A DNA stretch of 23,614 bases from an uncultured virus (IMG/VR IMGVR_UViG_3300005239_000257). Taxonomy: Duplodnaviria; Heunggongvirae; Uroviricota; Caudoviricetes; Crassvirales. Position 1 is the stretch's first letter. Each line of letters begins with the position of its first letter. Positions 1-22,553 of this stretch are shown one piece after another. A program made the translations under genes and the position numbers. The notes under the pieces are model-generated. The model was not told where the DNA came from. It saw only the letters and a program-made list of their open reading frames with translations, and searched no databases. The DNA lies in the IMG/VR virus record IMGVR_UViG_3300005239_000257; one strand, written 5' to 3'.

Positions 1-3000
1 AAATATGGAAATAAAACTACTTTAATAGAACAAAGTTTACTTAAAACACCTCAAGGTAAAGAAACTTTTGATTTTACAAAATCTGAGTTTGGTGAATCTA
101 TAGGTGGATTAGTTGAAACAATAACTAAAAGACTTTATGATCCTGTTTTACCTGATTTAAAAAGAGCTACATCTAGAGATCAGTTTAAACAAGATTTAGT
201 TTCACAAGCAGCAACTATTATTTCAAATGAATTTGATCCAAACAAACAAGATCTTGGTAAATTTACCACAAATAGATTAAATCTAAGAGCTAATAGAATT
301 GCTTCAGAAACTTTTGAACAAAAAATAACAGATGATGTTACCGAAGCGAAAGCTGTGTCAACTGATGAAAAAGCTGCAGACGAAGTTACGAAAAGAAAAC
401 CAATAACTGAGGCATTAAATTTAAAAGAACTTAAAGAATCTGTTGATAAAAATGCAGAGCTTGGTATAGTTAAAATAGAAAATACTTTAGACAATAACGA
501 TTTATCTGATCTTAAAAAGATAAATGCAATTAGAAAAAGTATTGGTGGATTATTTGAAAAACAATATTTTAAAGAAATAGGTAAAGTATTAGGTAAAAAT
601 ACAAAAACATCTGATGATTTTTCTAAATATTTAAATAATAATTTTGAAACTTTATCATACGCAGCAACTAATAATATTGATTTTCAAAAAGGAAACAACA
701 TAGCTTCTGATTGGAATACAAATTTTCCAACAAAAGAAGAGTTTATTGATTACTACGAAGGCAAAGATATTTTGCCATCACAACCAAGAAGTGTAAAATC
801 TGATAGAAAAAAATCTTTAATTAACGCCGTTGCTAGGCAAATGGCTAATGATGGTTTAAATAGTTATGTTAAGAAAAATCCTAAAGTAGCTAAAATATTT
901 AAACAAAAATATAAAGTACCTTTAGCTAGTAAAAGCACTATTCCAAAAAATGCAATACAAATAGCTGAAAACCTTCCTGGTTATGGATTAAGTAAAAATC
1001 CAAGAACACCAGCTGCTGGAGTTGCTAATGCTATACTTAAAAAAGTTGGTGGAGAATTAGATTTCAGCAGTGATGATATGCAGAAAAATCAAGATAATAT
1101 TAATTCATTTTGGAATATACTTGATTCTGCAGTTGCAAAAAATCCAAGCATTTTTCCTAAAGAAATATTTGGTATAAAAGGAATTTTTAGACCTAGCGGT
1201 AGAATATTTGGCACAAAAAGAGGTTCAAGTAAAGCTAGAGCAAATGATAAATCTGGAAAACTTACTGAAGAATATAACATACTTAATAATTTAAACGAAA
1301 AAAGATTTTCAGATTTTCAAAAAAAATATAAAGGTAAAATGGGATCTTTAGTTAATGATGCTAAGGGATGGAAAGGCAGTTCTTATTCTACTGTTTTTGG
1401 TAAAAAAGGAATAGTTACTGAACAAAGTATAAAAAAAGCTATAAAAGAAGGTAAAGCTGATGATTTTAATAAGAAAAACACAGCAATGCATCGACAAGTT
1501 TGGAGTTTAATGTTTGATCAGATAAAAATAGATCCTAATTTTGCTAAAATTGTAGATAAAATAACAAACACGGCTGATGCTACTAATAATTGGCATAGAT
1601 TTGGAGCAGAGTTTGTTGCTTATTCTATAAATCCTAAAGGTAGTAATAAAAAATTATATGAATGGGAGCATGCTATGCAAGCTAATACAGCTAAATTATT
1701 TTTATTAGACGCTGCTGTAAAAAAAATACCTTTTAATGAAATATATAATGCTGTTTCTAAAAATTATAAACTTATAGCATTAGACAAAGCTTCTGATTTA
1801 ATTTTAGGAAAAGCAAACAGAGGTAATTCTATGGGTGATAATTGGAATATGTTTACTGATAGTTATTTAAGTAGATATTTTTCACCAGAAGTAGTATTAC
1901 AAGGTGGTATTGATCCTAAAACTATTATTGGCTTAAATGGAGAAAGTTTAGCTACAATGTATAATATAGATTCAGCTGGGCAACCCGTTATAAAACCTAA
2001 AATTTTATCTTCTAAAAGTAGAACATTTTATGAAGATGGAGATGGTGTATCTGAAATTGAAGCGCCTTTAAGCAGAGAGTTTAATAAAATGTTAGAAAAA
2101 ACAAAAGGCGTTAAAGCTGGTGCTGTTTATTCTGATGCTAGAGCCGCTAAGATGGGTACTAAAAAAGGTTTTCAAGCTTTTGTACCTTATTCAGCTGAAG
2201 ACTTTTTAGGTTTAATATATCCTACATTAGGTAAAGGTGAGCAAGGTAATAAAGATCTTAAATGGTGGAAAGACAATGTAATGACACCTTATAATGATGG
2301 CATGACTAACTTTGAATCAGCTAAACAAGCTGCAATGATAGAGTGGAATCAAATAAAAGATCAAATACAAAACACACCAACTAATTTAGGTAAAGAAGCT
2401 GTACGTGACTTTTCTAATGAAGATGCTATACGAGTATATTTATGGGATCAAAAAGGTGTTGTGCCCGATGGTTTGTCTAAAAAAGATATATCAGCTTTAA
2501 CTAAACATGTAAAAGCTAATCCTGAATTACAAGATTTTGCTAATCAAGTAGCTGGTTTAAATATAAACGGTTATCCTGATCCTACAAAAGGATGGTTAGC
2601 TGGTACTATTACAACAGATCTAGTTAATCATGTAAATACATCAACAAGATCTGAAATGCTTGAGCCTTGGCAGCGAGCTATAGATGAAATATATACTAAA
2701 GATAATAAAAATAAACTTAGAGCTACATATGGTGATAAATACATAGAAGCTTTAGATGATATTTTATATCGAATGAAAACTGGTAGAAACAGACCTACTG
2801 GGGCTAATAGAATAACAAATAATTGGTTAAACTGGGTTAATGACTCTGTTGGTACGATTATGTTCTTTAACCAAAGATCTGCTATACTACAAACTATATC
2901 GTCTATAAACTTTATAAACTGGTCAGATAATAATCCAATAGCAGCGGCTAAAGCTTTTGCTAATCAAAAACAATACTGGTCAGATTTTGCAGAGTTATTT

Positions 3001-4395
3001 AATTCTGATTTTCTTAAACAAAGAAGATCTGGTCTTAAAACAGATGTAAACTCAGATGAGATAGCTCAACAAGCTGCTGGTTCTACTAATAAAGTAAGAG
3101 CTGGTCTTTCTTTGTTACTTAAAAAAGGATTTTTACCTACGCAAATAGCAGATAGTTTTGCTATTGCTTCAGGTGGATCTACTTTTTATAGAAACAGAAT
3201 TAATTCATTGATGAAAGAAGGAATGAGTGAGTCTGATGCTAAAAAACAAGCTTTTTCAGATTTTAGAGATTCTGCAAATGAATCTCAACAATCATCTGAT
3301 CCATCAAGAATTAGTATGGAACAAGCAAGCTCATTAGGGCGCGTTATATTAGCTTTTGCAAACACTCCGATACAATATACTAGATTAACTAAAAGAGCCG
3401 TTCAGGATCTTATGGCTGGTCGAGGAGACTGGAAAACCAATGTATCTAAGATAGTATATTATGGTGCTGTGCAAAATATTATATTTACAGCTTTACAACA
3501 AGCTATGTTTGGTATGTTATTTGCAGATGACGATGATGAATTTCAAAATGAAAGGAAAGATAATGCTACATTTAATATAGCTAATAGTACAGCAGACACT
3601 TTTTTAAGAGGTTCTGGTGTTGCCGGAGCTTTTGTTGCTATGCTTAAAAATATGGCATTAGAAGTTAAAAGACAAAGTGAAAAGTCAAGATCTGATTATA
3701 CTAAAGTAGCAGATAAGCTATTTACTGTTTCACCGCCTATAGATTCTAAGTTTAGAAAACTTAAAGCTGCAGGTAGAGCTTTTACTTATAAACAAGAGCT
3801 TGAAAAAATGAGAACAAGAGGTGTTGCATTAGATAATCCTGGCCTTATGGCTATTGCTCAAACAATATCTGCTTTTGGTAATATTCCAGCAGATAGAGTT
3901 CTACGTAAGTTAAATAACATAGTTGAATCTACAAATGACGAAAATGCAATTTGGCAGCGTATTGCTTTAGCAATGGGTTGGGGTCAATGGGAACTTGGTA
4001 TTGAAGATAGAAAAACGCGTGAAGCTAAAATAGAAAGAGATGCTTTTAAAAGAGTTGAAAAATCTATTGGTAAAGTTGTTAAAAAACGTGAAAAAGATGC
4101 TAAGAAAAAAAGTCCTATTAAAGATTTAGCACCAGGAGTTTTAGGTGAAGCTAACAGAGATGGTAGCATTGTTGTAGCTAAAGGACTTTCAAAAAAGAAA
4201 CGTGAAGAAGTTATTAAACATGAAAAAGTTCATCAAAAAGAAATGAAATCTGGTAAACTTGATTATGATGATAACTTTGTTTATTACGGTAAAAAAAAAT
4301 ATGAAAGAAAAAACGGCAAAATAATGCACAATGGTAAAGCTAAGATTGAAGGAGATCACAGTTTACCTTGGGAAAAAGTTGCACATAACGCTTAA
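1..4395 (+). CDS. Giant multidomain (polyvalent / internal virion-type) protein, 5'-truncated; sigma region-2-like segment, possible His-Me/HNH-like segment, long helical region and C-terminal HExxH metallopeptidase domain
   Basis: Frame +1 is open from base 1 (KYGNKTTLIEQ...) into the called ORF at 355, so the true start lies upstream of the window. HEKVH at 4219-4233 followed by PWEKVA fits a zincin-like motif. The virion role is inferred from size, strand and position. Confidence 0.75.
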   Translation, partial: KYGNKTTLIEQSLLKTPQGKETFDFTKSEFGESIGGLVETITKRLYDPVLPDLKRATSRDQFKQDLVSQAATIISNEFDPNKQDLGKFTTNRLNLRANRIASETFEQKITDDVTEAKAVSTDEKAADEVTKRKPITEALNLKELKESVDKNAELGIVKIENTLDNNDLSDLKKINAIRKSIGGLFEKQYFKEIGKVLGKNTKTSDDFSKYLNNNFETLSYAATNNIDFQKGNNIASDWNTNFPTKEEFIDYYEGKDILPSQPRSVKSDRKKSLINAVARQMANDGLNSYVKKNPKVAKIFKQKYKVPLASKSTIPKNAIQIAENLPGYGLSKNPRTPAAGVANAILKKVGGELDFSSDDMQKNQDNINSFWNILDSAVAKNPSIFPKEIFGIKGIFRPSGRIFGTKRGSSKARANDKSGKLTEEYNILNNLNEKRFSDFQKKYKGKMGSLVNDAKGWKGSSYSTVFGKKGIVTEQSIKKAIKEGKADDFNKKNTAMHRQVWSLMFDQIKIDPNFAKIVDKITNTADATNNWHRFGAEFVAYSINPKGSNKKLYEWEHAMQANTAKLFLLDAAVKKIPFNEIYNAVSKNYKLIALDKASDLILGKANRGNSMGDNWNMFTDSYLSRYFSPEVVLQGGIDPKTIIGLNGESLATMYNIDSAGQPVIKPKILSSKSRTFYEDGDGVSEIEAPLSREFNKMLEKTKGVKAGAVYSDARAAKMGTKKGFQAFVPYSAEDFLGLIYPTLGKGEQGNKDLKWWKDNVMTPYNDGMTNFESAKQAAMIEWNQIKDQIQNTPTNLGKEAVRDFSNEDAIRVYLWDQKGVVPDGLSKKDISALTKHVKANPELQDFANQVAGLNINGYPDPTKGWLAGTITTDLVNHVNTSTRSEMLEPWQRAIDEIYTKDNKNKLRATYGDKYIEALDDILYRMKTGRNRPTGANRITNNWLNWVNDSVGTIMFFNQRSAILQTISSINFINWSDNNPIAAAKAFANQKQYWSDFAELFNSDFLKQRRSGLKTDVNSDEIAQQAAGSTNKVRAGLSLLLKKGFLPTQIADSFAIASGGSTFYRNRINSLMKEGMSESDAKKQAFSDFRDSANESQQSSDPSRISMEQASSLGRVILAFANTPIQYTRLTKRAVQDLMAGRGDWKTNVSKIVYYGAVQNIIFTALQQAMFGMLFADDDDEFQNERKDNATFNIANSTADTFLRGSGVAGAFVAMLKNMALEVKRQSEKSRSDYTKVADKLFTVSPPIDSKFRKLKAAGRAFTYKQELEKMRTRGVALDNPGLMAIAQTISAFGNIPADRVLRKLNNIVESTNDENAIWQRIALAMGWGQWELGIEDRKTREAKIERDAFKRVEKSIGKVVKKREKDAKKKSPIKDLAPGVLGEANRDGSIVVAKGLSKKKREEVIKHEKVHQKEMKSGKLDYDDNFVYYGKKKYERKNGKIMHNGKAKIEGDHSLPWEKVAHNA

Positions 4396-19330: not shown

Positions 19331-19409
19331 AATGCTTATCTAGTAATTTATTAGCAGTTTCCATACTGATCTCATTGATCTCATATAGATGCCATATTAA
19401 TTTAGTCAT
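19323..19409 (-). CDS. Hypothetical micropeptide (28 aa, MTKLIWHLYE...)
   Basis: Manual translation; A-rich leader after the tRNA. Confidence 0.45.
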   Translation of the reverse strand: MTKLIWHLYEINEISMETANKLLDKHYE

Positions 19410-19429
19410 TTTTATTTATTTAAAGTTAG

Positions 19430-19502
19430 TTGCGCAGGGAGGATTCGAACCTCCGACCTCAAGGTTATGAGCCTTGCGAGCTGACCTCTGCTCTACTGCG
19501 CT
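19430..19502 (-). tRNA. tRNA-Met(CAT), initiator (fMet)-type; CCA not encoded
   Basis: AGCGCAG acceptor with 1:72 mismatch; D arm GAGC/GCTC; anticodon arm CAAGG-CTCATAA-CCTTG; T arm GGAGG-TTCGAAT-CCTCC. Confidence 0.93.
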
Positions 19503-20099: not shown

Positions 20100-20110
20100 A
20101 ATTTATTTTT

Positions 20111-20361
20111 NNNNNNNNNNNNNNNNNNNNNNNNNNNNNNNNNNNNNNNNNNNNNNNNNNNNNNNNNNNNNNNNNNNNNNNNNNNNNNNNNNNNNNNNNN
20201 NNNNNNNNNNNNNNNNNNNNNNNNNNNNNNNNNNNNNNNNNNNNNNNNNNNNNNNNNNNNNNNNNNNNNNNNNNNNNNNNNNNNNNNNNNNNNNNNNNNN
20301 NNNNNNNNNNNNNNNNNNNNNNNNNNNNNNNNNNNNNNNNNNNNNNNNNNNNNNNNNNNNN
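20111..20361. other. Assembly gap (251 N)
   Basis: Run of N. Confidence 1.
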
Positions 20362-20471
20362 TTTGCGTCACCGTCAACTGTAATTTCATTATCATACAAA
20401 CCTATGTATGTTAATTTATAAGCTTTTGGTATCACATTTTTAAATTGTGTGTCAAATTTATTACCTGCCAT
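20362..20471 (-). CDS. Hypothetical protein, 3' end in the gap (MAGNKFDTQF...)
   Basis: ATG after an A-rich leader; reading frame open into the gap. Confidence 0.6.
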
Positions 20472-20491
20472 TTTTATTTATTTATAATTAG

Positions 20492-20565
20492 TGGACGTGG
20501 TAGGAGTCGAACCTACGTTTGTTACGTTTCTCTAACGGTTCTCGTAACACTTACCCGTCACGCCC
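20492..20565 (-). ncRNA. D-armless tRNA-like RNA resembling an isolated tmRNA tRNA-like domain (G3-U70)
   Basis: Acceptor GGGCGTG/CACGTCC plus A; T arm GTAGG-TTCGACT-CCTAC; central stem TGTTACG/CGTAACA with a 16-nt loop. Confidence 0.75.
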
Positions 20566-20759
20566 TATTTTCTACGCCAAGCTTTGTGAACTTGTTCACT
20601 TAATTCTTGACTAACTATTTGTACTTCTAATACTTGTTTGTTTGCAATAATAGGTATATAACTTACTTTTTTAGTGCTTGAACACTGAACACAGCTATTA
20701 TAACCTAGTTTTATTCTTACTGGATGAATTATATCACCACATCTACAATGTTTTTTCAT
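20565..20759 (-). CDS. C4 zinc-finger protein, TraR/DksA-finger-like
   Basis: CRCGDIIHPVRIKLGYNSCVQC resembles the CG..I...R......C..C finger pattern. Confidence 0.65.
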   Translation of the reverse strand: MKKHCRCGDIIHPVRIKLGYNSCVQCSSTKKVSYIPIIANKQVLEVQIVSQELSEQVHKAWRRK

Positions 20760-22482: not shown

Positions 22483-22553
22483 TTGAGTGGAAAGGAATCG
22501 AACCTTTATTTCCCATTTAACTAAGGAATTTAACCTTGTTAACTGTTCACTCA
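22483..22553 (-). ncRNA. Second D-armless tRNA-like RNA
   Basis: Acceptor-like TGAGTG/CACTCA plus A; T arm AAAGG-TTCGATT-CCTTT; central stem TTAAC-AAGG/CCTT-A-GTTAA with a 7-nt loop TTAAATT. Confidence 0.65.

Follow-up and report, generated by a model that had tools for sequence, protein, structure and literature searches.

A putative tag-less, tmRNA-like RNA with alanine identity in a phage genome, and its covarying relatives in viral contigs

What is the 74-nt element that occupies the gap between two minus-strand open reading frames (ORFs) in this viral DNA? A sequence-only reading of the 23,614-nt stretch analysed here (hereafter the window) had described it as the tRNA-like domain (TLD) of a tmRNA, with alanine identity and no mRNA domain. 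The element is real, and the string written out in that reading is the reverse complement of positions 20492–20565, hence a minus-strand RNA that runs from G1 at 20565 to the discriminator base A73 at 20492. We refer to this TLD-only, tmRNA-like RNA as a mini-tmRNA.

Gene content identifies the window as phage DNA, with ORFs that match both subunits of ribonucleotide reductase, MazG, thymidylate synthase, a primase/helicase, an exonuclease with Erf, DNA ligase and a resolvase. No close relative of the window was found among 50,697 phage records, and a blastn search with the 1-kb surroundings of the element against cultured phages gave no match. The primase/helicase is nearest to that of Cellulophaga phage phi10:1 (41% identity), followed by those of a Riemerella-type phage, a Tenacibaculum phage and Flavobacterium phages. 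This proximity to Cellulophaga and kindred phages points to a flavobacterial host. The region recurs in marine metagenomes and in some labelled freshwater (12 studies). Elsewhere in the window, an ORF of 1346 aa (355–4395, plus strand) has no PHROG or Pfam match and gave a null tblastn result against cultured phages, and positions 20110–20361, inside the ORF downstream of the element, are masked with N.

The RNA has the parts of a tRNA-like domain that the sequence-only reading had named: an acceptor stem with G3·U70 and A73, a canonical T arm, an unpaired D region and no 7-nt anticodon loop. The 5' strand of the acceptor stem, GGGCGUG (20559–20565, G3 at 20563), pairs with CACGUCC (20493–20499, U70 at 20496), and this 3' strand together with A73 spans 20492–20499. 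A stemless D region of 9 nt, ACGGGUAAG (20550–20558), contains GG and carries A8 in place of the U8 of tRNAs; it is unpaired in the minimum-free-energy (MFE) and centroid folds and aligns with the D-loop columns of the family described below. In the MFE fold, the anticodon arm is replaced by a P2-like hairpin of 7 bp, UGUUACG and CGUAACA around a 16-nt loop (20520–20549). A linker, AAC (20517–20519), which also agrees with the Rfam tmRNA consensus, leads into the T arm GUAGG-UUCGACU-CCUAC (20500–20516), on which the fold and the Rfam tmRNA alignment concur. All family members share the AC ahead of the T stem (invariant alignment columns A48 and C49). CCA is not encoded; CUA comes directly after A73. 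G3-U70 is the identity element of alanyl-tRNA synthetase (AlaRS), and a stemless D loop with a long connector helix is the architecture of the tmRNA tRNA-like domain bound by SmpB.

Both the MFE and the centroid fold consist of exactly the 7-bp acceptor, the open D region, the 7-bp hairpin and the T arm. The fold energy is no better than chance (z = -1.05, with 33/200 shuffles equally stable), and above-chance support for the element thus comes from model and family comparisons and not from thermodynamics. The element stands out in G+C content (0.51 vs ~0.31 for the window). A terminator-like match on the plus strand at 20500–20516 is the T arm read from the opposite strand, and consensus scans of the window for promoters and terminators gave results at chance level.

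The Rfam tmRNA model (RF00023) matches the element at 30.6 bits (cut-off 47; E 5.9e-10 in a 2.4-kb search). The alignment takes in both ends of the 374-position model, with 37 nt standing in for 326 internal positions. RF00023 is the best Rfam family for the element; three weaker matches of the same clan were suppressed in this E-value-threshold search. At gathering scores, Rfam reports a tRNA-Met alone in the window, and the element is called by neither RF00023 nor RF00005. ARAGORN likewise calls tRNA-Met(CAU) only, and the mini-tmRNA neither as a tRNA nor as a tmRNA.

Canonical tmRNA (RF00023) and the window element have in common an acceptor stem with G3·U70, a GA-type D region with GG, the AC and T arm, and A73. 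Canonical tmRNA also has an mRNA-like domain, a resume codon, a tag ORF and pseudoknots, and the window element has none of these. Its two TLD halves are separated by 37 nt and its loop is 16 nt long, with no tag reading frame, and PK1–PK4 are absent along with the internal Rfam model positions.

We identified relatives of the element in viral contigs with two pattern scans. The first pattern combined the window's 5' strand with its T loop and matched at least 89 loci. Among the matches listed were 20 unique sequences with a fully paired acceptor, of which 3 are cloverleaf tRNAs and 17 have the layout of the window element. These 17 listed sequences all have U70 (17/17) and A73 (17/17); C74 is present in 16/17 and an encoded CCA in 2/17. 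The second pattern left acceptor positions 3–6 and 67–70 unconstrained, excluded U8 and matched at least 116 loci. Among the matches listed, 171 regular-expression matches included 54 with 7/7 acceptor pairs (51 unique). G3·U70 is present in 50 of these 51 unique sequences, in a pattern that left positions 3:70 free, and the one exception among the matches listed, an A-U pair, is in a long-arm tRNA.

An alignment of 68 unique members was then assembled, from which six loci (L132, L056, L005, L022, L123 and L100) had been dropped for cloverleaf features. After removal of these six rows, 3:70 is G·U in 68/68 members. Both partners vary in pairs 4:69, 5:68 and 6:67 as well as in three T-stem pairs, and double-change cells number 185 in the alignment vs 53.6 in shuffles. 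Full pairing of the acceptor and T helices was a selection criterion, so the evidence here is the covariation alone. All five P2 pairs also show double changes (5/5), with 91.5% of cells paired in a model-fitted alignment that leans to the model structure. P2 stems in relatives of the window's clade include UGCUGA/UCAGCA, UGUUGA/UCAACA and UGCAAA/UUUGCA. By these comparisons, the window element belongs to a large covarying family in viral contigs, and selection acts on G3·U70 and A73. G3·U70 and the stems are thus conserved in homologs, a point on which the sequence-only reading had made its claim depend.

Most members of the family have a tmRNA-type D loop, GG-UUUCGAC. Most also contain an inner P2 module composed of UAAAR, a covarying hairpin of 3–4 bp and AA (35 viral-contig and DS6A sequences), and the inner hairpin varies among CCG/CGG, CCC/GGG and CCAC/GUGG. 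The window copy has neither the inner hairpin nor the UUCGAC D-loop motif common in the family. The window's clade, the window copy included, forms a divergent branch of the family in which the D region is shorter; the window copy has in addition lost its inner hairpin. In most members the inner loop begins with UAA; we considered whether this might be a stop codon that brings about immediate termination and rejected the idea; the window's clade has CAAAG there, and the window copy lacks the motif.

Membership of the window element was also assessed with covariance models. The first family model (R1) scores it at 80.1 bits. A second model (R2) was built from 35 members, with DS6A in and the window's clade out, and provides an independent test of membership. 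R2 gives 51.6 bits to the window element and 43–57 bits to its clade, compared with 28–32 bits for bacterial tRNA-Ala genes with an identical acceptor stem and 17.5 bits for the window's tRNA-Met. RF00023 scores relatives unevenly. Two exceed the cut-off of 47 (L053, 50.4 bits; L013, 47.8 bits), three lie somewhat below it (the element of phage DS6A, 43.2 bits; L064, 41.3 bits; the Franklin22 copy, 41.1 bits) and others score lower (L016, 34.5 bits; L017, 31.4 bits; L006, 20.6 bits). With an E threshold of 0.01, RF00023 had no match in 6 of the 14 loci searched. ARAGORN miscalls some family members (L040 1487–1572 as tRNA-Ile(gat) and L062 1489–1568 as tRNA-Val(aac)) since the loop that closes each long hairpin is by chance ~7 nt in size.

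Bacterial tRNA-Ala is the other RNA to which the window element is closely similar. The two share G3·U70, A73 and the T arm, and in many genomes the acceptor stem is identical. In contrast, tRNA-Ala has a D stem, U8, a 5-bp anticodon stem and a 7-nt loop with NGC, and the window element has none of these. When bacterial genomes were scanned for the 3' end of the window element, at least 121 loci matched. ARAGORN called no tmRNA among the 121 bacterial loci listed, and the window's acceptor, GGGCGUG/CACGUCC, was found in no tmRNA call. GGGCGTG lies 60–110 nt upstream in 58 of the bacterial loci listed, nearly all of which are true tRNA-Ala genes, at 73 nt. Minis account for three of the bacterial loci listed (L255, L269 and L280, the last from a Bacteroidetes bin, where its contig is 1.7 kb long). 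The window's clade could descend from tRNA-Ala instead of tmRNA, because its acceptor stem is that of true bacterial tRNA-Ala genes. Under either origin, the element would be read functionally as an anticodon-less alanine acceptor.

Could the element then be a functionless tRNA-Ala pseudogene that has decayed by loss of its D stem and anticodon arm? Its acceptor, its ordinary fold energy and ARAGORN's failure to call it are what such a relic would show. However, relatives preserve the architecture by compensatory substitutions within P2 and within the T stem, the design recurs in phages with G+C contents from ~0.4 to 0.72 and with many acceptor sequences, and R2 separates the element from true tRNA-Ala by ~20 bits. 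We therefore regard a pseudogene as highly improbable, in agreement with the initial view that this is no decayed ordinary tRNA. The family instead forms a broad set that, by these comparisons, is under selection across phages that differ widely in host and in G+C content. Phages of the window's clade keep the element beside one ordinary tRNA or none, and one relative that is 100% complete by CheckV (G006) carries it with no RF00005 match. The element is thus not tied to tRNA arrays.

A published precedent exists in mycobacteriophage DS6A, whose tmRNA is listed as 'TLD only' by Hudson, Lau and Williams (2014; PMC4131195). That paper, citing Mao et al. (2009), states that a molecule similar to that of DS6A strongly inhibits tmRNA whether or not it can be charged. 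Titration of SmpB is put forward as a possible cause (PMC4131195; PMC11915505), and a 2025 tmRNA database paper repeats both the DS6A case and the inhibition of tmRNA (PMC11915505). We located the DS6A element with R1 at 28478–28560 of JN698994, between gp33 and gp34, where the record leaves it unannotated. DS6A was the one case of a phage TLD-only tmRNA found in the literature, and no paper describing a widespread phage family of such RNAs was found in a search largely confined to journals open without subscription.

The DS6A and window RNAs are phage-encoded, ~74–80 nt long and without a tag frame (tmRNA Website tmID 11587). Both have a 7-bp acceptor with G3·U70 and A73, a stemless D loop, one hairpin in place of the anticodon arm, AC followed by a canonical T arm, and a CUA trailer, and the same models match both. 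They differ in acceptor sequence (GGGGCCG/CGGCUCC in DS6A, GGGCGUG/CACGUCC in the window). The D loop of the DS6A RNA is of the tmRNA type and an inner hairpin (GAAAA-CCGCACGCGG-UA) is present, whereas in the window element the D region is shorter and the 16-nt loop is open. The host lineages differ as well, as relatives of the window phage infect Flavobacteriia. From its structure and model scores, the window element is a new member of the TLD-only (CDS-less) kind of tmRNA first noted in DS6A. The assignment made by the sequence-only reading is further supported by tmRNA being the best Rfam family, by the near-invariance of G3·U70 and by the coverage of the DS6A RNA with the same model family.

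Among cultured phages, Microbacterium phage Franklin22 carries an unannotated copy (NC_073427 39916–40003/40006; L090 1442–1529) between a tRNA-Asn and a tRNA-Gln gene, with an R1 score of 54.9 bits and the acceptor GGGCCUG/CAGGUCC. BLAST searches suggest similar 3' halves in the Microbacterium phages Katzastrophic, Celaena, FlameThrower, Bachaco and Gack. A BLAST search with a 77-nt version of the element matched 295 phage records, mostly through the 3' halves of ordinary tRNAs, and none of the 295 (0/295) covered 80% of the query. Matches in Aeh1 and Kremar were rejected as members (no G3·U70; R1 24 bits), and a match in Reedo is ambiguous. The cultured phages closest by primase/helicase, Cellulophaga phi10:1, PJN03 and Tenacibaculum JQ, gave no convincing copy (≤20 bits).

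CDS-less tmRNAs are also described in jakobid mitochondria and Mallomonadaceae plastids (PMC11915505). By that description, they too are reduced to a TLD of ~65 nt without a tag frame. Unlike the window phage element, these forms are organellar, arose by vertical reduction and have a dedicated imported SmpB (PMC11915505).

We propose that the window element is probably an alanine-accepting, anticodon-less phage RNA of the TLD-only tmRNA kind that binds SmpB in competition with host tmRNA. The mini-tmRNA would be co-transcribed with the upstream ORF. RNase P would cut its 5' end, its 3' end would be trimmed, CCA would be added and host AlaRS would charge it with alanine. The charged RNA, together with host SmpB (and EF-Tu), would then compete against host tmRNA, and proteins from stalled ribosomes would thereby go without the degradation tag, either through sequestration of SmpB or through donation of a single alanine without a tag. 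We think that the RNA would also enter stalled ribosomes as Ala-RNA and donate one untagged alanine, because the published inhibition required no chargeability, yet the family keeps its charging identity. Since inhibition is independent of chargeability, titration of SmpB alone fails to explain the invariant G3·U70. The sequence-only reading had offered titration of SmpB, EF-Tu or AlaRS, alanylation of stalled peptides without a degradation tag, or a decoy for tRNA-targeting nucleases as candidate mechanisms; of these, competition for SmpB has an experimental precedent, reported at second hand (PMC4131195; PMC11915505).

Genes for SmpB, an RF-1-domain protein (ArfB-type hydrolase) and tyrosine integrase were not found in any of five carrier contigs (5/5). 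A phage-borne partner protein of the SmpB or RF-1/ArfB type was rejected on this basis, and the element must therefore rely on host factors. The same contigs bear on whether the element is an attP remnant from integration into a host tmRNA or tRNA-Ala gene. Such a remnant would contain the 3' part of the gene alone, whereas the window element has both halves, and they pair. Integration into tmRNA genes is described as common, and pieces of these genes can be found in phages (PMC9004378). No tyrosine integrase, however, was found in the five clade-carrying contigs, three of which are 100% complete (CheckV), and an attP remnant is exceedingly improbable.

Phages carry tRNA genes in counter-defence roles, and this general role would also fit a different use of the RNA, as a charged or uncharged decoy for defence nucleases directed at tRNA or tmRNA, or as a donor or sink of alanine off the ribosome. 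One phage protein is described as binding fragments of tRNA and tmRNA (PMC11662646). However, neither the window nor the family shows any sign of a nuclease target, and the variable inner arm has no conserved loop for nuclease recognition. We consider such uses very unlikely.

The position of the element relative to its upstream neighbour raises a further possibility. The upstream ORF (20565–20759, minus strand) encodes a 64-aa protein with four cysteines that has no Pfam or PHROG match, and the G of its TAG stop (20567–20565) is G1 of the RNA. Homologues of this ORF with the same TAG/G1 overlap are found in two other loci (L021 and L030). In 11 of the 68 unique family members, the window element among them, G1 of the RNA supplies the last base of an upstream TAG stop; these cases represent at least 7 separate lineages with unrelated upstream proteins, and the upstream frame is open for at least 65 codons in 9 of the 11. 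As a control, TA precedes 4 of 157 G-initial ARAGORN tRNAs in the same loci, 2 of the 4 with a frame of at least 50 codons (Fisher p ~5e-4; 0.015 after collapse to lineages).

This overlap could reflect a self-contained circuit formed by the mini-tmRNA and its upstream gene. RNase P excision would take the last base of TAG and turn the upstream message into a non-stop mRNA, the product of which would otherwise be ssrA-tagged and destroyed. The RNA freed by the same cut would rescue the ribosome as a tag-less alanine donor, sparing the upstream protein. Such a circuit would resemble the control of ArfA via non-stop mRNA, but it would be phage-built. A comparable smpB/ssrA overlap in Carsonella is discussed in PMC4131195. 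We judge the circuit quite unlikely. Simple gene packing is the plainer explanation of the overlap, because in 31 of the 68 members the distance to the stop of the longest upstream frame is no more than 9 nt.

Downstream, the 3' trailer CUAAUUAUAAAUAAAUAAAAAUG (20469–20491, minus strand) leads to the start codon of the next ORF (ATG 20471–20469). A closely similar trailer (19407–19429, minus strand) follows the window's tRNA-Met(CAU) gene (19429–19502, minus strand; called by ARAGORN and Rfam). The two trailers are identical at 21/23 positions, and both end in the ATG of the next ORF. Within the window, the exact 16-mer TAAATAAATAAAAATG is found in just these two trailers; allowing up to 2 mismatches gives 4 matches in the window vs 0.59 expected. 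In the complete relative G002 (locus L030), a tRNA-Met lies 2 nt behind the mini-tmRNA.

The tRNA-Met of the window has a 1:72 mismatch, with A opposite A. A 1:72 mismatch marks the bacterial initiator tRNA. The window tRNA has 2 of the 3 G-C pairs typical of initiator anticodon stems, and the tRNA-Met of L030 (1583–1656) has the same 1:72 mismatch. A separate, degenerate tRNA-like piece at 22483–22553 (minus strand) has a T arm (AAAGG-UUCGAUU-CCUUU), an acceptor-like stem with 6/7 pairs and a similar A/U-rich trailer before an ATG. This piece overlaps small ORFs and scores weakly (R1 16.5 bits; R2 17.7 bits).

The trailers, the 2-nt spacing in G002 and the location of the element flush between two ORFs, with 31/68 members at most 9 nt behind an upstream stop, are features expected if the fold served as mRNA punctuation. 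In that case the element would direct cuts by RNase P and RNase Z that end the upstream message and give the next gene a fixed, short, A/U-rich leader, and charging would be irrelevant. Plant mitochondrial t-elements offer a parallel, as they are tRNA-like, are located between coding regions, could direct RNase P and RNase Z, and have been proposed as cleavage signals (PMC1920247); they are not reported to keep an aminoacylation identity, whereas the mini-tmRNA family keeps one. The conservation of this identity is the main difficulty for punctuation as the sole role, since G3·U70 is present in 50/51 unique sequences among the matches listed while neighbouring pairs vary freely, and A73 is kept. 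We know of no need for an AlaRS identity pair in a cleavage signal. Punctuation without charging is thus rather unlikely. The two roles are compatible, and the shared trailers and the 2-nt spacing in G002 make it likely that a processing-signal role is additional to the main one, although it does not explain the conserved G3·U70.

RNA-library contigs of relatives, 90–95% alike, span the element and its flanking ORFs; as contigs they show neither transcription nor RNA ends and strand, and they may stem from DNA carry-over. Other relatives' contigs lose resemblance exactly at 20566, the 5' edge of the element (two runs, depth 113 and 145). One relative contig stops near the 3' edge, at about 20489. 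The loss of resemblance at 20566 suggests that some relatives have the upstream ORF but different DNA at the element site. The element looks like a cassette that some relatives carry and that others have exchanged for different DNA.

In the papers found, trans-translation is treated as host quality control, with DS6A alone as a phage tag-less tmRNA. Mini-tmRNA genes escape ARAGORN and Rfam cut-offs, and annotation pipelines may mislabel them as tRNAs. If the alanine-accepting, SmpB-binding RNA proposed here does block or redirect tagging, many phages would reprogramme ribosome rescue with an RNA of 75 nt. This would bear on the conflict between phage and host and on genome annotation, and the mini-tmRNA would provide a natural minimal ligand of SmpB and AlaRS for research on trans-translation.
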